Source: Blastocatellia bacterium
Lineage (GTDB): Bacteria; Acidobacteriota; Blastocatellia; UBA7656
Direction of reading: 5' to 3'
Assembly: GCA_036277095.1 (NCBI GenBank)
Contig: DASUNP010000096.1
Location: 46,655 to 110,654 of the forward strand
Length of the DNA stretch: 64,000 bases
Below are positions 44,698 to 56,840 of the stretch, piece after piece; within the stretch, counting starts at the first letter, position 1; each line of letters starts with the position of its first letter. Below the pieces are notes generated by a model. The model was not told the origin of the DNA. It saw only the letters and a list, made by a program, of their open reading frames with translations, and ran no database searches. Both the position numbers and the translations under genes were made by a program.

Positions 44698-45408
44698 GTG
44701 CAGAAGATGGCGGATACCGATTCGTACTTGCTTGAGCGCCGACCGGGAGGCGAGATGAGGGACCGTGTCAAATGGGTTCTAGTCGGGATCGGTTCCACTT
44801 TCGGGCTCCACGTAATAATCTCGCTCATCTTCGCCGCCATCACTCAATCCGCAGCCAGCTCAACAATGTCTGTCATAGTATTCGGGATGGGACTGGGGGC
44901 ATTTCTCATCGGCGGATTTATCGTAGGCTGGATGAGTGAAGCGCTGCGCTTAATCGACGCGCTGGTCGTAGTAATCACGACGCTCGTGCTGACGACGATT
45001 GTTCTGCTCGTGCTGCCTGAAACGAGCAGAGATCAGTTTGTTACGGTTCTCCCGCTTGGCGACCTGACGGGCCATCCGGCTGAAAGCCTCATGTTCATCT
45101 CGCTGGCGGGCGTAGCGGCGGTTGCGGGAACCTACATAGGCTGGCATGTGACGGTCCCCCAGGAAGGCATTGTCGATCGCGTGGCGCTTGTCGTAGGACT
45201 TCTGGGGGCGATAGTCGGCCCTTTCTTATTGCTGGCCGTAGGCGGGCGCGAGCCGGGATCGAACCAGCCCGCGCTGCCTTGGTACTTCCTCGGAATCGTC
45301 CTCGTCCTGGTCTTAATAATTATGGGCGTCGGGTTCTTTATGTTCACGCGCGAGTCGCATCACGATGAAGAGATCTCGATCAGCCCCGAACACCACAAAG
45401 AGAATTGA
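44698..45408 (+). CDS. Integral membrane protein, unknown function
   Basis: 236 aa (GTG 44698 or ATG 44707). About six hydrophobic helices, with a C-terminal charged tail. Confidence 0.6.
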   Translation: MQKMADTDSYLLERRPGGEMRDRVKWVLVGIGSTFGLHVIISLIFAAITQSAASSTMSVIVFGMGLGAFLIGGFIVGWMSEALRLIDALVVVITTLVLTTIVLLVLPETSRDQFVTVLPLGDLTGHPAESLMFISLAGVAAVAGTYIGWHVTVPQEGIVDRVALVVGLLGAIVGPFLLLAVGGREPGSNQPALPWYFLGIVLVLVLIIMGVGFFMFTRESHHDEEISISPEHHKEN

Positions 45409-45449
45409 AATCTCAAATCTCAGATTTCAATTCCCAGATTTCAAATTCA
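45408..45449. repeat. Six tandem heptamers (aaatctc family) spanning the stops of two convergent genes
   Basis: aaatctc aaatctc agatttc aattccc agatttc aaattca. The plus-gene stop is at 45406-45408 and the minus-gene stop at 45427-45429. Confidence 0.7.
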
Positions 45450-47388
45450 CTTCTCGCAGGTCTTTCGCCACTTCGGCGGCCGTCTGGTAACGCTCCGCCG
45501 GGTTCTTCTTCAGTAATCTCTCTATTATCTTAATGAGCGAGTCGGGGGCGTCTTTGCGATGCTTCTTTACGGCGGACGGGCCGCGCTTGCTTATCGATTC
45601 GATCGTTTGGAAATATGTATCGCCTTCGAATGGGAGCCTGCCCGTAGTCACCTCATAAAGCACAACGCCGAGCGAGAAGAGGTCTGACAGGTGAGTGACC
45701 TCGCCGCGCCCCGTCGCCTGCTCGGGCGACATGTAGTTTACGGTCCCTAACAGCACACCTGATTCGGTCAAACGGCTTTTGCCCGACCCGCGCTCGGCGA
45801 GCGGCGAGGGCTTTGCAAGCCCGAAGTCGAGCACCTTCACTTTGCCACGGTCGGTAATCATTATGTTGGAAGACTTGATGTCGCGGTGGATCACCCCGCG
45901 CTCGTGGGCTTCAAACAGCGCTTCGGCGCTTTGAATGCCGATCTCTACGACCGAGATTAAATCTACGGGCCCGTAAGAGAGCCGGTCCGAAAGCGTCTCG
46001 CCTTCGACGTACTCCATAACAATGAAAGGATTGCCCGCCGCTTCGCCTATCTCATAAATGGTAGCGATATTCGGGTGGTTGAGTTGCGAAGCCATTCGCG
46101 CCTCTCTCAAGAAGCGCTGCTTCATCGTGTCGTCTTCTACATATTTTGAGGCCAGCACCTTTATCGCCACGGTGCGCTGAAGGTCCGTGTCGTATGCCTC
46201 GAATATCTCGCCCATGCCGCCCGCGCCGAGCGACCGCCGTATGTCGAACCTGCCTATGTGGCCTTCGGGTTCGATGAGCGGCGGCGCTATGACCTTCTCC
46301 GTCTGGCCGTCGTGCACGGCCATCACCGCGCGGTCCGTGTCGCGAAGCTCTGTGGTTATGACGCGCGGGCGCGAGATGACGGACGAAAAGAGTTTAGAGA
46401 ATAGTCGCGGCCCCCTGTCGTCTTCAATGAAATAGCCTGCGCGCTTGAGGTCCTGGTAAATGTGGTCCTGCTCTTTTTCGACTCGGCCATCCTCGTTGAA
46501 CGAGCGTATCGCGCGCCGCTGGCCTTCGCCCATGTGGTCCCAGATGAATCGGAACTGCCCCTTGGCTTCGTCCAGGAAAGTGGCTTCGACCTCTTCGCGA
46601 TCGAGCTTTCCTTCATTCTCCAACAGGTGATCGAAGTAGGCCGAGCAGGCTATTTGTAAAAAGTATGGGAAATACCCGGCGGTCTCCGTGATTCGCCGCG
46701 CGTAGCCTTCCAGCGACAGCCCCGCTTCCGCGGAAGGCTTGACGATCAAATCCATCGCCTCTTTGCGGGTGAAGGCTCGCAGAAAGACGTTCGTGAAGAT
46801 ATTGAAGAAGGGCGAGTCGGCTATCAACTGGGTGTGGCAAAGCTCCTGCAAATCCCTGGCCGAGCTTGTCACGTATGCTACATCGTAGTTGTTGGCGATT
46901 GACCGCAAGAAAGAGTAGAACTCAAGATCGAAGGCGCGGTTCGTCGTGATCGCGTCGAACTCGTCGAACAGCACTATCAGCTTGCGCGACTCGCGGCGAA
47001 AATTCTCAAGCACGTTTCGAACTGAATCGAACGTGGGGTCTAAACTGTTCAGGGAATCGTCGCCGATCTCTTTTGCGAGCAAAGCGAAAAGCTCTTTAAA
47101 AAACTCCGTGAGCGTAAGCCGCCGTTTTTGCTGAAGATCTATAAATGCGAAAGCGTAAGACGCGGGGCGGTCGAGAAAGCGTGCGCGGACCTCCGGGTGG
47201 TCGATGTAGTAAAGCAACGACGATTTGCCGATGCGCCGCTCGCCGACCACGGATATCGATTGCGGCCGCGACGCCCCTATGCGCGAGAATATTTTTGATA
47301 CTTCGCGCGTGCGCCCGAAAAACTGTTTCGGGTCTTTGATCGCGACCCGGTTCAGATACGGGTTGCGGACGTGATCGATTGCTGACAT
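45427..47388 (-). CDS. P-loop NTPase (STAND/ORC-like AAA) fused to a C-terminal Hanks-type Ser/Thr protein kinase
   Basis: 653 aa. Walker A VVGERRIGKSSLLYYI and Walker B LIVLFDEFD. Kinase motifs GAGGMGEIF, VAIKVL, HRDIKSSNIM, DFGLAK, GTVNYMSPEQ. Confidence 0.85.
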   Translation of the reverse strand: MSAIDHVRNPYLNRVAIKDPKQFFGRTREVSKIFSRIGASRPQSISVVGERRIGKSSLLYYIDHPEVRARFLDRPASYAFAFIDLQQKRRLTLTEFFKELFALLAKEIGDDSLNSLDPTFDSVRNVLENFRRESRKLIVLFDEFDAITTNRAFDLEFYSFLRSIANNYDVAYVTSSARDLQELCHTQLIADSPFFNIFTNVFLRAFTRKEAMDLIVKPSAEAGLSLEGYARRITETAGYFPYFLQIACSAYFDHLLENEGKLDREEVEATFLDEAKGQFRFIWDHMGEGQRRAIRSFNEDGRVEKEQDHIYQDLKRAGYFIEDDRGPRLFSKLFSSVISRPRVITTELRDTDRAVMAVHDGQTEKVIAPPLIEPEGHIGRFDIRRSLGAGGMGEIFEAYDTDLQRTVAIKVLASKYVEDDTMKQRFLREARMASQLNHPNIATIYEIGEAAGNPFIVMEYVEGETLSDRLSYGPVDLISVVEIGIQSAEALFEAHERGVIHRDIKSSNIMITDRGKVKVLDFGLAKPSPLAERGSGKSRLTESGVLLGTVNYMSPEQATGRGEVTHLSDLFSLGVVLYEVTTGRLPFEGDTYFQTIESISKRGPSAVKKHRKDAPDSLIKIIERLLKKNPAERYQTAAEVAKDLREVNLKSGN

Positions 47389-47401
47389 ATCAACTTTGAT
47401 T

Positions 47402-50400
47402 CTAAAGCGTTCTCACCTCTTTAACCACCTGCCAGATAGAGTGAGAGCGGCGAATCCACAAGCGTAGCAGGTCTATCTTAAACCTAAACCCATCGGACGA
47501 ATCCTTGTCTAAAAGCTCGCGGCGGAACATCTCTTCCAGGGTCAATCGAATGGAGTTCTCCGACAGATGCACAGGGTAATCATTGGCCTTCACCGAAGTG
47601 CGCAGCTCGCGGGCCGTGGCAAAAGCATTTCCGTCCGGGAGAATGTCGGCCAAAAGCGACAGCGAGAGCTTCTCGTCGTCCGACAACACGTCCCAGGTGT
47701 AGATCATTTGCGGCAACGGGTTGTCAACAACGTCGGCGATGACATCGCCAAGCTCGGCGACCGTGACCCAGTTTTGCTCGTGCTCGTTCATGTAATCGAC
47801 CAGATTCTGGCAGATGACCTGCGTGTAGAAGGGTTGGCCCGCCGTCAAACGGCAGACCGCTTCTATCACGCCGCGCCCGTAGACTACGCGCCCCTCCACG
47901 GGTTCGGTGATCAAACGATATGCGTCTTTATCCGACAGAAAGCCGACCTTGCGAAAGAGCGACCGTCGCAACAGCTCGCGCCAGTATTTCTTGTCGCGCT
48001 CTTCCAAGCGGCGCGAGCCAGTGAAGATCAGCGCCAGCCGCTCCTTGTTGTCCATCAGCCCGGCCAGGAACGTGAACAACTCGGGCGAGAGCTTCCCCTC
48101 GTCGACCTTCCCTTCCATCAGCTCGTACTCATCCATCAAAATCAACAGCGTGCGGTCGCCGATCGCCGCCATAACCTCATCCAGGAAATCCAGAAAGATG
48201 GGATAAGGGTTGCGACCGTCGAACTGAGGCAGGCTCAATTCAACCCGCGCCGCCCCCGTCGCAACTCCAGCAGCGCCCGGCGTATGAGCGTGCGCAGCCT
48301 GGCTGCTTTTTGCTACGCCCGCGCGCGCGACGGCTTCGGCTATCAGGCGAGATATGCGCGCGAAGAATTCCGAGTCCGATGCGATGACCATCTCCTGCAT
48401 ATCGACGAAGACTGGGATGAAGCGATCGCCCAGCCGGCCGTTAAGCACCTGGTAGAGAATCGAGCTTTTGCCCACTCGCCGGTCGCCGCAAAATACTATG
48501 ACAACGCCCTGGCTCACGCCTTCGAGCTTTGTGCGGACGTAGCGAAAATCGTCTTCGCGCCCGTAAAACATCTGCTCTGTGCGAATGGGGTTTCCGACTA
48601 TGTAAGGGTTAGGCTCTATCGGGACGTAGTTGCGCAGCTCTTTCGGCAGCACGTATTCGCGGTCGCGCGCTCTGCGCGCAGCGATCATGAGGCCGACCGT
48701 CAGCCCGATGAGCGCGATTGCGAGCGCATGAAACCACCAGCGTTTCCAAAAAGGCGAGCCGACTCGGAGTGCGAGCGCGGCTGCGGGCGCTTCGATGCCG
48801 TAAAGGTCGCGGTTGAGCGCGATGATCTCAAACCGGTGCGTCCCTTCGCTCAAATCGAGCAGCGAGACTTCGCGCTCGGCTACGGGCTGGACCGGCAGCA
48901 GTTGCCAGCGGGCGTCCGCTCCATCCGACAAGAGGCGATAAAGATAGATGACCTGCCCGCTCAAGGTCACGGCAGTGAAGCGGAAAGACAGGCGGTGGCG
49001 GCCATAAGATAGCTCGTGCGTCTCCGAAGCCGGAACCGAAGCTTGCCCGTCTACCTGTAACGAAGCTTCCACGACAGGAGCCGCACGCACAGGCACGTGA
49101 CGCACAGCGCCTTTGTCTGTCGCAATCCAGATTCGCCCTTCACCATCTTCGGATATAGAGTTGACGCGGCTGGCAGTGAGAGCCTGGGCTTCGCCCGAAT
49201 AGACGGCTGAGAGGATGTGGCCGCCGAATAGAACAAACTTCTTGGCCCGCCCGTCGTCGGTCCCCGCCCAAAGATAACGGCCCGCGCGGTCGACGTAGAG
49301 CGTGCTCGTAGGCTCGCCGTCGAAGGTCGTGAACTTTGACGCGGCAGGCGTAGCCTCGACGTAGACCTGTATTCCCGCGCGCGTAGCGACGAGCAGTTTA
49401 TCGTCATACCGCGTGATCCAGCGCGCGTCATTATCGGCAAGCCCCCGCGCGCTATCGATGAGATCGGCCCCGCCCGACTGCGGATCGAATGCTACTATCC
49501 CGCGCGAGGTGGCAAACCACAACCGCCCGTCTCGGTCTTCGAACGCGTGGCGCACGTCATAGCCGGAAAGCTGCTCAAGACTTATCATGCGGTCGTCTTT
49601 GTAAATGTCTACGCCCCTGGCGGACGCAAAAAGCACTGCCGAATTGTTAGCGATGCTCGCGACCCAGTGAACGTTTTTCGACGACAGCCCGTTGCCTTCG
49701 TTGAACTGAGTCAGGGTCTGGCCGCTCAAGCGGAGCACGCCCTGGTCTGTCGCAAACCACGCCGCGCCCGTCCGGTCAAAAGCGACGGCTCTGCCGCCAA
49801 TGCTTGCGCGAAAGCGCTCGACCGGCACGAACCGCTCGTCGACCATTCGCGACACGCCCGCAGCCGTGACAAACCAGAGGCGACCCGAAGCGACGGCGCC
49901 CGCAGGGGCAGGCTCTTCGACTACCATGCGCACGTCGTTATCCGAAAGGCCACGGCTCGTGCTGAAATTGACGAAGCTGTAGAAGTCCGCCCGCACCGCG
50001 CCGTTGTCGGTCGCGCACCACGTGATGCCCTCGCGGCTTGTGAAGATCGCGGCTACGCGGTCGCGCTCGACCGATGCGATTCTCTGGGATTCGCTCCTCG
50101 CAGGGTCGTAAAGCAACGCGCCGCCCGTAGCAATCGCAAGCCATATGCGACCACTCCGGTCCTGGCTTATCGTGCGAACGGTGGAAGGCGCAGCCGCTCT
50201 AGTCGAATCCGCGCGAGCCGTCGCAATCGGCGACGGGATGTTTACGCGGGTGCCGTCGAAGAAAAAAGCGCCTTTCGCGGTCGCGAGCCAGATTGTCCCG
50301 CCCCAATCTACGAAGACGGATTGGGCGTCAGTAAGGTCGATTGCGCGATTGGCTTGCTCAAGCGGAGTCGCCGTCTGGCCGTCTATCGTGGCAAACCCGC

Positions 50401-51502
50401 TTGAAGTCGCAACCCAAATCTTTCCGCTCTTGTCTTCGGCCAGCGCCCTGGCGTCGTTTGACTGAAGGCCGCGAGATTGGTCGAACAAAACGAACTCTCC
50501 GCCGTCAAACTTGAAGACGCCCGACGAGGTCGCCACCCACACGTCGCCGCGCGAGTCTGTAATGACGCTGCGCGCGTCGCGGCCGCTGAGCGCGGTCCCC
50601 TGGTCCGCCCCATCTTTTGCGATTCGGCGGATGCCGCGCGGCGTAGCCAGCCATATCACACCGGTCCGGTCTTCGGCGATGGAGCGCACGTCTTCGCCAG
50701 CGAGCTGCTCGTAGGCCGACCCCGCCACAGCCGACGAGCGGAACTCCGAGCCGTTGTAACGCGCAATACCTTTATCCGTGCCGAACCACATCCAGCCCGC
50801 GCTGTCTTGAAAAACTGCCTGCACATTCTTTGAAGGCAGGTTAGGGACGCTCACGCGCACGACGGCCTTTTCGTTGATGGGGATCGTGGGCGCGACCAGA
50901 AGCTGTAAGGGGAACTCTGTCGTGATGCCCGATGAGATGAATACTTCGTTGCGGTACTCGTCATACCCGCGCAGCACCGCCGTCAACTGGTAAGAGCCCG
51001 GCGCGAGACGGCCGAAATACGCGTCGCCACTCTCGTCTGTAGTCGTCCGCGCGGGCGGGCGATCCTGGCTCGAGAGAGTTACGGCGACGCCTCCGAGCGG
51101 CTGGTTCCCCGCGTCAAGCACGGCCACGTGCAGAGACGACGGTGTCAGCTTTATTAAAGGATCGGGCGTTTCATCGACACGGGTTATGGTTAGGCTAAGT
51201 CTCTCTTTGCGAAAACGGGTTGCCTCGGCGGTTATAGTGTACTGGCGCGGCGCAAGGTTTCGGAACTCGAACTTCCCGTCGGCGCTCGTGAGCGTCGATT
51301 GCGAGAATCCTTCAGACGTTATAGTGACTTTGACATCGGCCACGGGCAGTCCTCTGTCGTCCTGCACCGTGCCAGTGATAGTAGCGCCTTCGACCTGGGC
51401 CGCCGTTCTTTGCAAAAACGTCTGCCCGGTCGCGATAAGAAGCGACAGGATCAAGGCTGCGCCAGCGGCTCGGAAGCGATCTCTTGAGATGCGTGTAGAC
51501 AC
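47402..51502 (-). CDS. Exported 2x CarboxypepD_reg + double beta-propeller (Reg_prop repeats) + Y_Y_Y sensor, one TM helix, cytoplasmic STAND/ORC-like P-loop NTPase
   Basis: 1366 aa with signal peptide. Repeated D..G.iW.AT..G blades (DRTGVIWLATPRGI, DSRGDVWVATSSGV, DKSGKIWVATSSGF, DGEGRIWIATDKGA...). Y_Y_Y-like VIYLYRLLSDGADARWQ. TM helix WWFHALAIALIGLTVGLMIAA. Walker A FCGDRRVGKSSILYQV and Walker B LLILMDEYE. Confidence 0.85.
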   Translation of the reverse strand: MSTRISRDRFRAAGAALILSLLIATGQTFLQRTAAQVEGATITGTVQDDRGLPVADVKVTITSEGFSQSTLTSADGKFEFRNLAPRQYTITAEATRFRKERLSLTITRVDETPDPLIKLTPSSLHVAVLDAGNQPLGGVAVTLSSQDRPPARTTTDESGDAYFGRLAPGSYQLTAVLRGYDEYRNEVFISSGITTEFPLQLLVAPTIPINEKAVVRVSVPNLPSKNVQAVFQDSAGWMWFGTDKGIARYNGSEFRSSAVAGSAYEQLAGEDVRSIAEDRTGVIWLATPRGIRRIAKDGADQGTALSGRDARSVITDSRGDVWVATSSGVFKFDGGEFVLFDQSRGLQSNDARALAEDKSGKIWVATSSGFATIDGQTATPLEQANRAIDLTDAQSVFVDWGGTIWLATAKGAFFFDGTRVNIPSPIATARADSTRAAAPSTVRTISQDRSGRIWLAIATGGALLYDPARSESQRIASVERDRVAAIFTSREGITWCATDNGAVRADFYSFVNFSTSRGLSDNDVRMVVEEPAPAGAVASGRLWFVTAAGVSRMVDERFVPVERFRASIGGRAVAFDRTGAAWFATDQGVLRLSGQTLTQFNEGNGLSSKNVHWVASIANNSAVLFASARGVDIYKDDRMISLEQLSGYDVRHAFEDRDGRLWFATSRGIVAFDPQSGGADLIDSARGLADNDARWITRYDDKLLVATRAGIQVYVEATPAASKFTTFDGEPTSTLYVDRAGRYLWAGTDDGRAKKFVLFGGHILSAVYSGEAQALTASRVNSISEDGEGRIWIATDKGAVRHVPVRAAPVVEASLQVDGQASVPASETHELSYGRHRLSFRFTAVTLSGQVIYLYRLLSDGADARWQLLPVQPVAEREVSLLDLSEGTHRFEIIALNRDLYGIEAPAAALALRVGSPFWKRWWFHALAIALIGLTVGLMIAARRARDREYVLPKELRNYVPIEPNPYIVGNPIRTEQMFYGREDDFRYVRTKLEGVSQGVVIVFCGDRRVGKSSILYQVLNGRLGDRFIPVFVDMQEMVIASDSEFFARISRLIAEAVARAGVAKSSQAAHAHTPGAAGVATGAARVELSLPQFDGRNPYPIFLDFLDEVMAAIGDRTLLILMDEYELMEGKVDEGKLSPELFTFLAGLMDNKERLALIFTGSRRLEERDKKYWRELLRRSLFRKVGFLSDKDAYRLITEPVEGRVVYGRGVIEAVCRLTAGQPFYTQVICQNLVDYMNEHEQNWVTVAELGDVIADVVDNPLPQMIYTWDVLSDDEKLSLSLLADILPDGNAFATARELRTSVKANDYPVHLSENSIRLTLEEMFRRELLDKDSSDGFRFKIDLLRLWIRRSHSIWQVVKEVRTL

Positions 51503-51550
51503 TTGCTTGCGATAGATATCGAGTATACACGGGCGGGTTGCGGGGCGGCA

Positions 51551-51641
51551 ATTCTAAGTGCTGAGTGCTGAGTCCTGAGTCCTGAGTGAGAAAACAGAAC
51601 CGTGCGCTTATAGTTTTACTCAGCACTCAGCACTTAGAATT
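51551..51641. repeat. Hairpin of the ctgagtg/ctgagtc heptamer family, 24-bp perfect stem
   Basis: aattctaagtgctgagtgctgagt (51551-51574) pairs with actcagcactcagcacttagaatt (51618-51641). The loop holds further heptamers cctgagt cctgagt gag. Confidence 0.8.
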
Positions 51642-51678: not shown

Positions 51679-53631
51679 TTAGCTGCCTTCGATGTAAGGG
51701 CGCGACTGGACTATGTAAAGCTGGCCGCGCGCGTAGAGCCATTCGATGTCCTGGTCGCGGCCTGCGAACAATCGCTTAATCTGGTAAGCGGCGCGCGCAA
51801 GCCGCCGCACCATCGGGTCCGTCAGAACCGCGCGGCTCTCGTCGATCTTGACCTCGCGAACGCCTCCGCTCTCATCAAACTTGAGCATAGTGTCTTCATC
51901 CGACCGCGTTAAAACCTGTATCGCGTTTGAGCGAGGGCTGTAGATTAACTGCTCGGGCACGCGACGCCCCTCGACCACTTTGATACCGAGCCCGCGCTTT
52001 GCGTTGACATAGACGGCCCCCCTGTTAGCCCGGTTGAACGGGTCTGTCGTAATTGCGACGCCCGCGCTTTCGGCGTCTATCCCCCTTTGAACCAGCACCG
52101 CAGGATATACGCCGAAATGGTTCATGCCGAAACTTTCGCGCGCCTCGTAAGCTTCGTAATTCCACACCGAAGCCCAGACGGTCTTGATTGCTTCCATCAA
52201 CTGGTCGTCCGCGCGAACGTTCGGAACGGTCGTGTAGAGGCCGGCCCCGCTGAAGTTCGGCAGGTCTTCGGCGTTCGTTGAACTTCGCGCGAAAAGCCCA
52301 ACGCCCCGATACTCGCGACGGACTTTGTCAACCACTGCCGCGCGAAAATCCGCGTCGTGCCGACCCTCTTGAATCCACCGGCGAATCTCCGCCAGCCGCG
52401 CTTTCCTGTAGACGGGGTCGTGTACGAAGCGATCCTCTTCGACCGCCGAGGCGATGCGCTCTTCCAGACCGTTCGAGCGAATGAACTCCTGATAATAATG
52501 GAAAGGAATCGTGAAACCCGAAGGCACGACTACGCCGGGCAGGCGCGCGTTAAGGATCTCTCCGAGGTTAGCGGACTTTGCGCCGAACCGCCGCGCGTCG
52601 CGCGCCCGCTGATCTTTGAGGTCCGCAAGCCCGTCGTAAACGAGATCGGCTTTGGGCGTGATCATGTCGGCGCGCTTCATCCATTGGCGCTGGCGCGCTT
52701 CGACCTCGCGCACGTCGGCGGGCGCAAGGCGGTACTGGCTTTCGCCGACTTCGAGCCGCACGTATTTGCCTTCGAGCTCTTTGAAAAGGCGGTCCGCGTT
52801 TTTGATGTGGGCGTTCGGTATAGACCATGACTTCGCCAGGAGGTTTGCGTGCGAGAGCGGCGAAGCGGGCTCGGTAGTGATTATGCCCGATAGCGGAGTC
52901 AGTTGTACCGGCACCTCTTTGAATATGATTATCTGATTACGGTCTATGACGATTTCGGGAGTCATTCGATCGATGATGCGGAGCTGGCCGATGCCTGCTC
53001 CGAGGTTGAGCGGCTGATACTTCTGATCGCGCGCAAGCTCGCTTGAGGTCAGGACGGAAAACGGGCGGGCCGACCCGGCCGCTTCTTGCGCAAGCTCGCT
53101 CGCGGCCTCTTCTTGAACGAGCGAATTGGGCTTGAACGAGAGGGGCGCAAAGAAGCTCTCGGCCAAAGCGGCGTGAGCTTCCCGAAGCAAATCTCGCGTG
53201 AGCCGGTCGCCCTCCCAGAACTCGAAGGTGAAGCGGTCGAGCGCGCTCTGGTAGGCGACGGTGCCGAGGAAGAACCGGCGGTCAGCCCTCAAATAATTGT
53301 TCTCATAAAATGCGCGCCCGCGTTCGAGCGAAAGGTAGGTCGAGTTGACAAAGTCTTTGTGAAACTGAAACCGCTTAGAGTCGACGTAATAGACTCGCGC
53401 GACCGCCGGGCCGCGCACCGCTCGGCGGTCGATGACAAACATTAGGTGCGGGAGCGCGTAAAACCGCCCGCGAAAATAGACACGGGCCAGGCGGTCGAAC
53501 TCGGCCCTCGTATTGATTCGCGCAAGCGAGTGTTTCTCAATCTTGCCGCTCACTTGTGCTAATGCCCAGGGGGCGGGAGGCGCGATTGCGATGCAGATTA
53601 ACAGTATCAGGATTGCTCGGTATTGTTTCAT
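51679..53631 (-). CDS. Signal-peptide-bearing dikinase-like protein: unknown N-domain + PEP-utilizer phosphohistidine (swivel) domain + C-terminal PPDK_N ATP-grasp domain
   Basis: Start at MKQYRAILILLICIAIAPPAPWALAQ (53631). Swivel IIIFKEVPVQLTPLSGIITTEPASPLSHANLLAKSWSIPNA. ATP-grasp FGAKSANLGEI..VVPSGFTIP, ARSSTNAEDLPNFSGAGLY, GLGIKVVEG, DQDIEWLYARGQLYIVQSRP. Confidence 0.75.
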   Translation of the reverse strand: MKQYRAILILLICIAIAPPAPWALAQVSGKIEKHSLARINTRAEFDRLARVYFRGRFYALPHLMFVIDRRAVRGPAVARVYYVDSKRFQFHKDFVNSTYLSLERGRAFYENNYLRADRRFFLGTVAYQSALDRFTFEFWEGDRLTRDLLREAHAALAESFFAPLSFKPNSLVQEEAASELAQEAAGSARPFSVLTSSELARDQKYQPLNLGAGIGQLRIIDRMTPEIVIDRNQIIIFKEVPVQLTPLSGIITTEPASPLSHANLLAKSWSIPNAHIKNADRLFKELEGKYVRLEVGESQYRLAPADVREVEARQRQWMKRADMITPKADLVYDGLADLKDQRARDARRFGAKSANLGEILNARLPGVVVPSGFTIPFHYYQEFIRSNGLEERIASAVEEDRFVHDPVYRKARLAEIRRWIQEGRHDADFRAAVVDKVRREYRGVGLFARSSTNAEDLPNFSGAGLYTTVPNVRADDQLMEAIKTVWASVWNYEAYEARESFGMNHFGVYPAVLVQRGIDAESAGVAITTDPFNRANRGAVYVNAKRGLGIKVVEGRRVPEQLIYSPRSNAIQVLTRSDEDTMLKFDESGGVREVKIDESRAVLTDPMVRRLARAAYQIKRLFAGRDQDIEWLYARGQLYIVQSRPYIEGS

Positions 53632-53835
53632 ACACCTATCCGGTTTCGGCTCGTCCAAATACTTATTGCAGTTCCGACAGCGCTATTGATTTTGCACCAA
53701 GACGGCTCGGCGCGCCACACCGGAAATGCGGATTGTTGAAGTTGAAAAGAGCGCGGCTTCGAGGGTATGATCGGGATGCATCCACAATCGGACCCGCATG
53801 GTTATAAAGCCTTCCCGCCAGGGACGGCTACTTGG

Positions 53836-54620: not shown

Positions 54621-56215
54621 AGGTCAAAGGTATCGAGAGCGCACGCTTCAGTTTCCGGTTCTCTTTTTACACCATAGTTCTCGTCATAGGGCTCGCGCTT
54701 ACACCCGCCGCGCCGCGCACCTCAGCCGAAAGCGGCGACCGCAAGCAGAAGGACCCGAACGAGAAGCATTATCGCGAAGCCAAGAAGAACATACGCGAAG
54801 GCAAGTACGACAAGGCTGTAATCGTCTACACAGATATTCTCAATAAAGACGAACGCGCCATACATGCGCACCTCGGCATGGCGCTCGCCTACGCCAAGAA
54901 GTTAAATTTTCAGGGCTGTTACGATCATGCAATCAAAGCTATTGAGATAGAACCGAACAACGCGCGGGCGCACGCCCTGGCGGGCCTCGCGCTGCTCAGG
55001 TCCGGGTATGTCCCAAGCGCCGTCGAGCGACTTGTTCAATCCGTCACCATCAACCCGAAAGAGGCGCTGGCGTTCGGGGCCGCCGCAGAGATCGATTACT
55101 ACGAAGGCCGTGCCAGGGATGCTCACGCAAAAGCCATCCACGCATATAACCTCGACCCGGAAGAGCCCGATTATCTGGTGACGCTCGCCCGCGCCTCGTC
55201 CCGGCTTGAAAGGTTTGGCGACGCCGCAGACGCCTACGAGATGTTCCTGCGGATAGCGCCGCAGACAGACCGTGAGCGCCGCGAGCGTATACAGGGGCTG
55301 ATTAATTTCTACCGCGAGTTGGCAGGCATAGAGGTGCATCAGGTCGGCGGCGCGAATTCGACGAACGTGCCGTTCGAGCTGGGCACGGACCGCCGCCCGT
55401 ATGTGAAGCTGAAGATCAACGGGCGGGACGCTACTTTCGTTATCGACACGGGCTCGGGTTTCACGGTGATCTCGAAAGACGCGGCCAAGCGGTTCGGCGT
55501 GTCAGAGATCGCGCGAGGCGGCAAGTCGCAGGGCGTAGGCGGGGACGGTAAATTCCAGATAATTTATGGGCTGATAAAATCGCTACAGCTCGGAGAGGCG
55601 CGTCTGCGCTCGGTGCCGTGTTTCATCCGCCCGTTTCACGGGACCAAAGAGCGACCCGGAGAGAGCCGCTCGGACGGCTTCATAGGCCTGTCGGTGCTTG
55701 CGCACTTTTTGACCGAGCTTGATTACAAAGACAGCGTCATGCGGCTCAACCGCCAGATCGGCCAGCAGCCCGTCCCCTTGCCGGCTTCCGTCGACGAGAC
55801 GGTCATCCCGTTCCGCACTACGCAAAACGGTTTGATAAGCGTAGAGACGGAGCTGGACGGCAATCACCGCATCAACGCGATACTCGATTCCGGCGCGAGC
55901 TCTACGGTGATCTCGACCGCGGCGGTCGAGCGGCTAAAGATGCGCGACCAGATAATCAAAGGTCAGACGGCTCGCGTGATTGGCGCGGCGGGGGTGAGCG
56001 ACAACGTCGAGCTCCTATTCATACGCAACTGCCGCGTGGCCGGCATTTCGCAAAACAACCTGCGGGCGCTGGTGCTTGATTTCGGCGCCATCAACGAGAC
56101 TTCCGGGTTCGAGCAAAGCGGCATACTGGGAGGCGACTTTCTCCGCCACTACCGCGTGACCATAGACTTCTCGCGCGCGCAGGTCACGCTCAAGCCGCAC
56201 ACCTCCCCCAAATAA
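54617..56215 (+). CDS. Exported or membrane-anchored TPR protein with two retropepsin-like aspartyl protease domains
   Basis: ATGA overlap with the ogg stop. Anchor FYTIVLVIGLALTPAAP. TPR repeats. Two active-site blocks FVIDTGSGFTVIS and AILDSGASSTVIS. Confidence 0.7.
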   Translation: MKVKGIESARFSFRFSFYTIVLVIGLALTPAAPRTSAESGDRKQKDPNEKHYREAKKNIREGKYDKAVIVYTDILNKDERAIHAHLGMALAYAKKLNFQGCYDHAIKAIEIEPNNARAHALAGLALLRSGYVPSAVERLVQSVTINPKEALAFGAAAEIDYYEGRARDAHAKAIHAYNLDPEEPDYLVTLARASSRLERFGDAADAYEMFLRIAPQTDRERRERIQGLINFYRELAGIEVHQVGGANSTNVPFELGTDRRPYVKLKINGRDATFVIDTGSGFTVISKDAAKRFGVSEIARGGKSQGVGGDGKFQIIYGLIKSLQLGEARLRSVPCFIRPFHGTKERPGESRSDGFIGLSVLAHFLTELDYKDSVMRLNRQIGQQPVPLPASVDETVIPFRTTQNGLISVETELDGNHRINAILDSGASSTVISTAAVERLKMRDQIIKGQTARVIGAAGVSDNVELLFIRNCRVAGISQNNLRALVLDFGAINETSGFEQSGILGGDFLRHYRVTIDFSRAQVTLKPHTSPK

Positions 56216-56253
56216 GTGCTGAGTGCTGTGTGAAGGACAAATACTCAGCACTC
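56216..56253. repeat. Hairpin, ctgagtg family
   Basis: AGTGCTGAG-(20 nt)-CTCAGCACT, starting 1 nt after the protease stop. Confidence 0.55.
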
Positions 56254-56299
56254 AGGACTTCTTCTCCGGGCCTGTGATAAAATCATTCTCGCGGCTATC

Positions 56300-56766: not shown

Positions 56767-56825
56767 AGTGCTGAGTACTGAGTCCTGAGTGAAAGATAAT
56801 TACTCAGGACTCAGTACTCAGCACT
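56767..56825. repeat. Hairpin, ctgagt heptamer family, 24-bp perfect stem
   Basis: agtgctgagtactgagtcctgagt (56767-56790), loop gaaagataatt, actcaggactcagtactcagcact (56802-56825). Confidence 0.8.
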
Positions 56826-56840
56826 CAGGACTTAGAAAAG

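Follow-up and report, generated by a model that had tools for sequence, protein, structure and literature searches.

Within the 64,000-nucleotide stretch of a Blastocatellia genome analysed here (contig DASUNP010000096.1; hereafter the window), two adjacent genes on the minus strand, gene 1 and gene 2, encode a membrane protein and a protein kinase, each of which carries a STAND-like nucleoside triphosphatase (NTPase) module (Table 1). The host of this two-gene unit is a soil acidobacterium. Re-reading of the open reading frames (ORFs) reproduced the positions, strand and lengths of both genes, and the 13-nucleotide gap between them, as given in an earlier reading made from the DNA letters alone (the sequence-only reading). 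A promoter-like site precedes gene 1, a terminator-like hairpin lies at the stop codon of gene 2, and a consensus scan found no terminator-like site between the two genes; this arrangement is consistent with a two-gene operon. The best explanation of the locus is that gene 1 and gene 2 form one operon encoding a two-protein transmembrane signalling unit.

Table 1. Features of the two-gene locus and its surroundings. Positions are those of the window unless a homologous locus is named.
Feature	Position	Strand	Extent and evidence
Gene 1	47402-51502	minus	1366 aa, GTG start
Signal peptide or N-terminal anchor, gene 1 residues 1-36	51395-51502	minus	GTG, Arg-rich n-region, hydrophobic core 12-30, AAQ-V site (translation and hydropathy)
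Two CarboxypepD_reg (transthyretin-like) β-sandwiches, gene 1 residues ~38-200	50903-51391	minus	Pfam PF13620, 2 stretches, 93.3 bits
~14 Reg_prop blades (two 7-bladed β-propellers), gene 1 residues ~221-812	49067-50842	minus	Pfam PF07494, 114.9 bits
Y_Y_Y-like membrane-proximal Ig-like domain, gene 1 residues ~815-915	48758-49060	minus	Motif IYLYRLLSDGADARWQLL and homologue matches
Single transmembrane helix, gene 1 residues 922-945	48668-48739	minus	Hydropathy peak 2.21
Cytoplasmic NTPase, gene 1 residues 948-1366	47405-48661	minus	419 aa; P-loop, lid, winged helix (AlphaFold2, Foldseek, motifs)
Spacer, gene 1 stop to gene 2 ATG	47389-47401	minus	13 nt, operon junction (sequence)
Gene 2	45427-47388	minus	653 aa, ATG start, downstream of gene 1
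nSTAND2 NTPase, gene 2 residues 1-341	46366-47388	minus	Pfam PF20702, 221.5 bits against a cutoff of 24, residues 39-293
Disordered linker, gene 2 residues 342-375	46264-46365	minus	AlphaFold2 pLDDT <50 for 342-368
Hanks-type Ser/Thr kinase, gene 2 residues 376-653	45430-46263	minus	Pfam Pkinase 166 bits, residues 383-636
Promoter-like site TTGCCG-18-TATACT	51522-51551	minus	Just 5' of gene 1 start; consensus match only
Terminator-like hairpin	45400-45435	minus	14-bp stem and T-run at gene 2 stop, between convergent genes
PPDK_N gene	51679-53658	minus	659 aa, signal-peptide-like N-terminus, C-terminal PPDK_N 190 bits
236-aa ORF	44698-45408	plus	Convergent with gene 2; no Pfam family; kept here in most close Blastocatellia
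Inserts between separated gene-1-type and gene-2-type genes	L013 8044-9833; L035 6663-8551; L008 7407-8877; L017 7248-8192; L034 7371-7947 (likewise L024, L038 and L039); L019 7530-7862		Selfish elements and a 110-aa ORF

The exported part of the gene 1 product combines two CarboxypepD_reg sandwiches, a pair of β-propellers and a membrane-proximal Ig-like domain. A count of the blade motif gave 9 strict and about 5 degenerate copies at a spacing of ~42 residues (residues ~225-810), and the propeller region has a PorZ-like NCBIfam match. The domain calls of the sequence-only reading for this protein proved correct by Pfam, hydropathy and the blade count, its Y_Y_Y call with a qualification: Pfam does not detect Y_Y_Y (PF07495) in the gene 1 protein itself but does so in the homologues P0034, P0038, P0069 and P0074, and the YxYxL...W signature of the domain is readable in the gene 1 translation. 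HisKA, HATPase_c, REC, GGDEF and AraC-type helix-turn-helix domains are absent from gene 1 in the Pfam scan. The cytoplasmic output is a STAND-like NTPase and not a histidine kinase or a GGDEF domain, as had been proposed from the letters and as the Pfam scan, the AlphaFold2 (AF2) model and Foldseek now agree. On a 92%-identical contig (L002, 5294-9404), the gene 1 orthologue is broken into about five ORFs and the kinase gene downstream is intact; this is either a frameshifted assembly, likely caused by long-read errors, or a pseudogene.

The gene 1 NTPase opens with the lead-in NPYIVGNPI and the motif FYGREDDF, followed by Walker A (GDRRVGKSS from residue 1006, with K1012), Walker B (LMDEYE from residue 1122, with D1124/E1125), FTGSRR, a lid with GQP and a C-terminal winged helix. 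Its AF2 model, built on 78 homologues, has a predicted local distance difference test (pLDDT) score of 91.8 and a predicted template-modelling score (pTM) of 0.86 and consists of a P-loop α/β core, a helical lid and the C-terminal winged helix. Foldseek matched this model in the PDB to 2qen, a Walker-type ATPase of P. abyssi (PF01637), to archaeal Orc1/Cdc6 and to the NB-ARC region of the plant NLR NRC3, with E values of about 1e-10 and template-modelling scores (TM-scores) of 0.4-0.5. Pfam yielded sub-threshold generic matches only (AAA_14, ATPase_2, AAA_22, AAA_16 and nSTAND2), with ATPase_2 PF01637 at 19-23 bits, below its cutoff of 33.2, and nSTAND2 PF20702 at 20.7-21.2 bits against a cutoff of 24, the latter a partial match to model positions 111-237. 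NCBIfam and PADLOC returned nothing specific, and sequence searches of the PDB with the gene-1 profile and with the gene 2 NTPase gave weak matches only (2fna, 2qen and Cdc6) and no characterised relative. The P-loop domain also contains an Ala/Ser/Thr/Gly-rich insert (window 48212-48301, gene 1 residues ~1068-1097, residues ~121-150 of the modelled construct; pLDDT ~60), situated between the helix that follows strand 2 and the one after it and found only in close Blastocatellia homologues. Judging from the model, this insert could be a flexible regulatory or phospho-acceptor loop.

The gene 2 product, in which hydropathy revealed no transmembrane segment, begins with an NTPase whose PF20702 match spans 269 of the 279 model positions. 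Its motifs are NPYLNRVAI, FFGRTRE, GERRIGKSS (K55), LFDEFD (D142/E143), YVTSS, DSPFFNIF and a GYFPYF lid, followed by a winged helix, and the AF2 model shows the same three parts (P-loop, lid and winged helix) with confidence over residues 10-340. Beyond the linker, the kinase has a PknB-like NCBIfam match of 297 bits in addition to the Pfam one, and its motifs are complete: GAGGMG (GxGxxG) at 388, VAIK with K410, HRD at 501, DFG at 521 and the APE-like SPE at 554. The activation loop is disordered in the AF2 model. No HisKA, HATPase_c, REC, AraC-type helix-turn-helix, TPR, HEPN or GT4 domain was found in the Pfam scan of gene 2. Pfam (nSTAND2 and Pkinase) and the full set of catalytic motifs bear out the sequence-only description of gene 2 as an NTPase joined to a complete Hanks kinase.

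The hallmarks of STAND proteins reportedly comprise a Walker A motif GK[ST], a Walker B motif hhhhD[DE], the motif hhGRExE, a GxP motif in the lid and a winged helix, along with a nucleotide-dependent oligomerisation switch. In both families the Walker A lysine and the Walker B Asp-Glu pair are invariant (78 gene-1-type and 23 gene-2-type sequences), and from these motifs both NTPases are predicted to be catalytically intact. The other motifs of the gene 1 NTPase are likewise invariant in its 78 homologues, and the STAND hallmarks vary little or not at all within either family. An hhGRExE-type motif precedes the P-loop (MFYGREDDF in gene 1 and FFGRTREV in gene 2, with F-G-R invariant in both alignments), the GxP-type motif of the lid reads AGQPFYTQ in gene 1 and, less exactly, AGYFPYF (G..P) in gene 2, and both AF2 models contain lid helices and a C-terminal helix-strand-strand-helix unit. 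On these features of sequence and predicted fold, the term 'STAND-like' is justified for both modules. Compared with each other, the two NTPases are 23% identical in BLASTP (E=2e-14) and align in hhalign over 329 columns with 99.6% probability (E=1.3e-24, 20% identity). By this comparison of sequences they are homologous over their whole length and represent old sister subfamilies, not recent duplicates; their description as 'clearly paralogous' was right as to homology but overstated what is only a deep relationship.

Searches with the gene 1 NTPase returned hundreds of proteins, with the family motifs PNPYIVGNPI..MFFGR, GERRSGKTS, DEYE, FTGS, GQPFYTQ..CQ, NPLPQMIY.W and W.RR.HS.WQV. Among the homologues examined, the NTPase is always joined to a transmembrane segment and a variable extracytoplasmic domain, and three arrangements occur. 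The first, as in the window, is propeller/Y_Y_Y ectodomain, transmembrane helix and ATPase; in the second the order is inverted, with the ATPase followed by a transmembrane segment and PEGA/CarboxypepD_reg domains, and here the ATPase should still be cytoplasmic; the third consists of an N-terminal hydrophobic stretch, an unannotated domain, a second hydrophobic stretch and the ATPase. In a few proteins of the third type the unannotated domain is matched by PF14827, which we take to be a dCache-type sensor domain. A pattern scan of one genome per GTDB species identified a gene-1-type relative in 260 species, mostly Blastocatellia; other carriers belong to Vicinamibacterales, Calditrichota, Eisenbacteria, KSB1 and Poribacteria. 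A Blastocatellia metagenome-assembled genome (MAG) shows 95% identity to the window. By an exhaustive profile search the family has at most 3007 clusters (50% identity; E<=1e-30), a maximum that is inflated because the query profile retained PEGA columns. For these proteins the source records offer no more than the annotations 'AAA+ ATPase superfamily predicted ATPase', 'PEGA domain-containing' or 'hypothetical'. The gene 1 NTPase defines a large membrane-anchored family to which neither Pfam nor NCBIfam dedicates a model. Loci of the same architecture with 57-81% identity to the module also occur in several MAG records that bear the title 'uncultured Clostridia bacterium' (L008, L010, L015, L022, L042, L049-L051, L058 and L060), which looks like a taxonomic mislabel.

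To assess how well the gene pair is conserved, every ORF of the retrieved loci was scored against the modules of the window itself and against hidden Markov models (HMMs) of both families. Viewed from gene 1, 62 loci from species-representative genomes extended at least 2.5 kb downstream, and a same-strand nSTAND2-kinase gene is present in 52 of them: within 200 nucleotides in 35 (overlapping in several) and further off but within 6 kb in 17. Viewed from gene 2, a gene-1-type neighbour, nearly always directly upstream, accompanies 42 of the 52 informative kinase-type homologues on metagenome contigs (36 present and 6 cut by contig ends). The check that the sequence-only reading had set for its own proposal, conservation of the two genes as neighbours, does not refute it: they are kept together in about 80% of informative loci, whichever gene is taken as the starting point, and across phyla. 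Often the two types of gene overlap or are separated by a very short spacer. The pair is kept at 42-47% identity in other phyla with unrelated flanks (L003, L004, L079, L080, L082 and L083), where the ectodomain is PEGA/CarboxypepD_reg or an unannotated N-terminal domain that, given the PF14827 matches in a few relatives, is possibly dCache-like; the kinase precedes the nSTAND2 module in the protein of L003 and in proteins related to it. The pair is conserved across phyla despite this swapping of ectodomains. Among 43 orthologous pairs, median identity is 56% for the ectodomain, 78% for the receptor NTPase, 83% for the gene 2 NTPase and 78% for the kinase; as measured by identity, the ectodomain diverges faster than the three cytoplasmic modules. 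In Blastocatellia in which the two genes are separated, the inserts between them include an EcoRV-like endonuclease with a D12 adenine methyltransferase, a BrnT-toxin pair, an IS200-type Y1 transposase and a 110-aa ORF (Table 1), and the spacer between the genes is a recurrent insertion hotspot for selfish elements.

What is attached to the nSTAND2 module, at one end or the other, varies among relatives of the gene 2 NTPase (40-50% identity): a Hanks kinase, a class III cyclase (PF00211 or a divergent cyclase-like domain), a PP2C/SpoIIE phosphatase, a TIR domain (one case) or nothing. Receptor partners were seen for the kinase types and for one cyclase-like type (L076), and the receptor link is strongest for kinase-type nSTAND2. 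The parts of the pair also occur unfused: a five-gene operon (L085, 188-7731) encodes a gene-1-type receptor ATPase (775 aa), a Phenol_MetA_deg-like outer-membrane barrel (446 aa), a bare nSTAND2 protein (377 aa), a free Hanks kinase (344 aa) and a cyclase-nSTAND2 protein (592 aa). A Phenol_MetA_deg barrel and a PP2C gene likewise lie near the pair in L003.

A distant form of the tandem, one of the few plasmid matches to the NTPases, was found on an Acinetobacter ursingii plasmid (L167, NZ_MH220285, 196986-202512). Here a 1323-aa fusion of type I restriction-modification (R-M) HsdM and HsdS ends in a gene-1-type NTPase (134 bits to the gene-1 HMM). It is followed by the gene for a 520-aa ATP-binding protein, which scores 65 bits with the gene-2 HMM as opposed to 20 bits with the gene-1 HMM and has a C-terminal domain of ~180 residues. 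At this locus a paired-STAND cassette seems to be coupled to an R-M system, and the tandem of gene-1-type and gene-2-type NTPases resembles an old cassette of two genes to which different inputs have been joined. Its occurrence on an R-M input suggests that the two NTPases work together irrespective of the input, and shows that the clade has roots in conflict systems.

Literature searches outside subscription-only sources revealed no paper that joins a STAND NTPase, a transmembrane or extracytoplasmic sensor and a kinase, and searches for bacterial kinome atlases also gave nothing relevant. The claim that no described system has this wiring holds in that sense but has to be narrowed, as the concept of a paired-STAND operon already exists (PMC8195603). 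The closest description is the two-gene nSTAND2 'counter-invader' operon of Kaur, Iyer, Burroughs & Aravind (2021; eLife 10:e70394, PMC8195603), whose two STAND modules share a conserved arginine finger and are predicted to assemble into a toroidal hetero-multimer. One NTPase of that operon has eroded nucleoside triphosphate (NTP)-binding motifs, together with a winged helix-turn-helix, TPRs and HEPN or GT4, and the system is described as mobile. Like it, the pair in the window consists of two adjacent same-strand genes that each encode a STAND NTPase with a winged helix, one with a variable N-terminal part and the other with an effector. In contrast to it, both NTPases here appear intact, with Walker A and B invariant family-wide; the effector is a Hanks kinase on an active module, with no TPR, HEPN or GT4; the window locus is syntenic among housekeeping genes; and the sensing partner spans the membrane and carries an extracytoplasmic sensor, membrane receptors not being discussed in the text of PMC8195603. 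The nSTAND2 representative of that study, WP_094198012, has no Pfam match (PF20702), and its hhalign probability against the gene-2 family is 0.7%, a comparison based on one representative; it is found on none of 72,556 plasmids, and its single database relative lies on a contig too short to show a partner gene. One undiscussed Calditrichaeota row in the supplement of the same paper resembles the unfused five-gene operon. Because a paired-STAND hetero-multimer operon has been proposed by Kaur et al. (2021), the present idea is a variant and not unprecedented; what sets it apart is a sensing partner that spans the membrane as a receptor, has exchangeable extracytoplasmic domains and belongs to a large unnamed family. 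The iSTAND ternary systems (Kaur et al. 2020) were considered as a source of the transmembrane-PEGA combination and rejected: their PEGA domain is on the vWA component, and the MoxR and vWA genes that they require are absent here.

The sensor half of the gene 1 product resembles that of the Bacteroides hybrid two-component system (HTCS) protein BT4663 and of BguR, which likewise combine an exported tandem β-propeller, a membrane-proximal Y_Y_Y domain and a single transmembrane helix and show the same module wired to different outputs. A scissor-like movement has been reported for the sensor of BT4663 (PMC8534201), and BguR is a one-component regulator with direct DNA-binding output (bioRxiv 10.64898/2026.01.10.698779). 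The gene 1 product differs from both in its cytoplasmic part, which is a STAND-like NTPase and not HisKA/HATPase/REC/AraC or GerE, in two extra N-terminal CarboxypepD_reg domains, in its acidobacterial host and in the lack of a polysaccharide utilization locus context.

In the NTPase half, the P-loop, lid and winged helix are shared with archaeal Orc1/Cdc6 heterodimers and with sensor/helper NLR pairs such as NAIP-NLRC4 and the plant NRC network (Foldseek 2qby, 1w5t and 9ria). The logic shared with the NLR pairs is that one family member senses and a paralogous one executes. Neither group has a membrane receptor, and at 10-15% identity the likeness points to a possible working mode, not to family membership. 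Among solved structures, the best matches of the gene 1 NTPase in both structure and sequence are the archaeal 'ATPase_2' proteins (PF01637; 2qen and 2fna), which, unlike the gene 1 product, are soluble and consist of a single domain set; their function is not established, and gene 1 scores below the Pfam cutoff. PknK of M. tuberculosis combines a kinase with a MalT-like ATPase, and proteins made of a cyclase, an ATPase and TPRs also exist in that organism. These resemble the gene 2 family in the covalent joining of a Hanks kinase or class III cyclase to a STAND-type NTPase but are AAA_16/MalT-type proteins with TPR or LuxR parts that act singly. We know of no dedicated membrane receptor partner with a sister NTPase for PknK-type proteins.

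The interpretation that we favour, at about even confidence, is that the two proteins form a receptor/adaptor-kinase pair coupled via heterotypic contacts between their NTPases. The gene 1 product would be the receptor, with an exported ligand-binding ectodomain, one transmembrane helix and an Orc/Cdc6-like STAND NTPase, and the gene 2 product the soluble adaptor-effector, in which the sister NTPase is connected to the Hanks kinase by a flexible linker. Binding of a ligand would shift the membrane-proximal domains and transmembrane helices of a receptor dimer or oligomer, possibly by a scissor-like movement such as that of BT4663, and the receptor NTPase would pass into an NTP-bound, assembly-competent state. 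In this state it might recruit or nucleate gene 2 NTPases through heterotypic contacts, as in Orc/Cdc6 heteromers or sensor/helper NLR pairs. The clustered kinases would then trans-autophosphorylate their disordered activation loops and go on to phosphorylate substrates, and hydrolysis of NTP would reset the system. Ligand-driven, NTP-dependent hetero-oligomerisation with kinase activation had been proposed in outline in the sequence-only reading; its statement that such a relay replaces His-Asp phosphotransfer can be taken as a functional analogy. We would extend the model only tentatively to a widespread, so far unrecognised class of receptors, in which a variable sensor joined to a STAND-type NTPase nucleates a hetero-oligomer with a soluble sister-NTPase adaptor that bears a kinase and sometimes a cyclase. 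Such receptors would amount to a 'sensor/helper NLR pair' anchored in the membrane and would signal on a principle other than that of two-component systems, receptor kinases, extracytoplasmic function (ECF) sigma/anti-sigma pairs and chemoreceptors.

Several observations weigh against a coupled receptor and adaptor-kinase. STAND proteins usually homo-oligomerise, and neither an arginine finger nor an interface was identified in the two NTPases. The flank contains no gene-2 homologue in 10 of the 62 gene 1 loci, and 10 of the 52 kinase-type homologues have no gene-1-type neighbour despite at least 3 kb of upstream sequence; with ~16-20% of orthologues non-adjacent, adjacency is not obligatory. 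The R-M, toxin-antitoxin and IS inserts between the genes indicate that strict translational coupling is not needed either. All three informative metagenome loci with PP2C- or cyclase-type nSTAND2 lack a receptor, as does L084, so the nSTAND2 module can work alone. In 21 distant loci there is no conserved third component (phosphatase, FHA protein or transcription factor), the recurrent clusters there being antisense shadow ORFs or lineage-local FG-GAP/PEGA neighbours, and no conserved substrate gene was found beside the pair.

The main rival explanation differs from the coupled pair in role rather than in mechanism. The locus might be an envelope-triggered conflict system directed against phages or competitors, in which damage to the envelope or a component of an invader is sensed by the ectodomain, the paired STANDs assemble like those of other NLR-like defence systems and the kinase (a cyclase or TIR domain in relatives) acts as a growth-arresting effector. 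Among relatives, the distant NTPase tandem fused to type I R-M on the Acinetobacter plasmid and the TIR domain of one close gene-2 relative (P0186, on a short contig with no receptor upstream) both fit such a role, as do the fast evolution of the ectodomain and the repeated landing of EcoRV-type R-M, BrnT toxin and IS200 elements in the spacer. Class III-type cyclases are effectors in the Pycsar defence system. The nSTAND families were themselves defined in predicted counter-invader systems, a paired two-gene operon included (PMC8195603); both NTPases here, however, are intact by their motifs, and TPR, HEPN and GT4 are missing. The kinase domain matches the PD-T4-6 and mad6 kinase models of PADLOC, but these are generic Hanks-domain matches: in PADLOC-DB 2.0, gene 1 has 0 matches and gene 2 matches only via its kinase (residues ~375-650), so that no model matches either NTPase. 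Kinases, cyclases and PP2C phosphatases are, moreover, classical signalling outputs. The genomic setting also speaks against a conflict role. The neighbours of the pair in the window are housekeeping genes (class II tRNA synthetase, cytochrome c, CCA/polyA polymerase, FeoB, OGG, TPR-aspartyl protease and HtrA), the locus is inherited with conserved flanks across Blastocatellia (74-95% identity), unlike patchy defence islands, and both NTPases are nearly absent from 72,556 plasmids (4 and 1 matches at 22-25% identity). The module is syntenic in Blastocatellia and near-absent from plasmids, yet scattered over several phyla. We regard the conflict role as less likely than the coupled signalling pair, though worth keeping in view.

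Two further readings dispense with the proposed relay. The wiring might be reversed or otherwise different, with the receptor NTPase as the output and the gene 2 kinase modulating it; the NTPase might scaffold an envelope process, or its winged helix might bind DNA like Orc1/Cdc6 or like BguR and ToxR, one-component regulators tethered to the membrane. The closest folds, those of Orc1/Cdc6, do have DNA-binding winged helices, BguR provides a precedent for a propeller/Y_Y_Y sensor with direct DNA-binding output, some receptors have no kinase gene nearby (L001/L077), and the Ser/Thr/Ala-rich insert (pLDDT ~60) could be the phospho-acceptor; but that insert is specific to close Blastocatellia, the winged helix of STAND proteins is normally an intramolecular regulatory element, and no conserved target operon or binding motif was found beside the pair. 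This wiring also leaves the kinase's own sister NTPase unexplained, and it seems improbable. The other reading, that the two proteins are functionally independent and their adjacency reflects only an old tandem duplication or shared regulation, might account for the roughly one in five loci in which the genes are not adjacent and for nSTAND2 proteins with other outputs that occur alone. Same-strand adjacency has nevertheless been kept across several phyla, through ectodomain replacement, inversion of topology and a change to unrelated flanks; because the subfamilies are only ~20% identical, this linkage has been kept for very long, and in the five-gene operon the parts travel together even when unfused. 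We consider independence highly improbable.

If receptor and adaptor-kinase are coupled as proposed, an NTP-driven assembly switch between them would be a new principle of bacterial transmembrane signalling. The gene 1 product would then be a prokaryotic NLR-like NTPase that reads an extracellular signal through the membrane, which bears on the recruitment of STAND and NLR proteins to sensing. Only two genes make up the module, and its Walker A and kinase mutants are easily specified, so that it lends itself to direct tests; the modular swapping of its sensors and outputs could be of use in engineering.

Two neighbouring genes were considered as parts of the module, the PPDK_N gene upstream and the 236-aa gene convergent with gene 2, and both were rejected: they are conserved only in close Blastocatellia, which amounts to local synteny. 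The PPDK_N gene is co-directional with gene 1, lies 176 nucleotides upstream and is kept there only in a subset of Blastocatellia. PPDK_N, a phosphoenolpyruvate/pyruvate-binding, ATP-grasp domain, is the only domain of its product, and an apparently exported ATP-using domain is odd. Between this gene and gene 1 lies a perfect 24-nucleotide inverted repeat with a 44-nucleotide spacer (51550-51641), and the promoter-like site of gene 1 is located downstream of it. Intergenic palindromes built of the heptamer units GTGCTGA/GTCCTGA occur here and at 56215-56259 and 56767-56832; a 17-mer from them has 11 matches in the window as against 0 expected, and the palindromes look like a repetitive extragenic palindromic (REP)-like element family. 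IS200/Y1-type transposases, possibly of the RAYT type, are found at the same locus in relatives.

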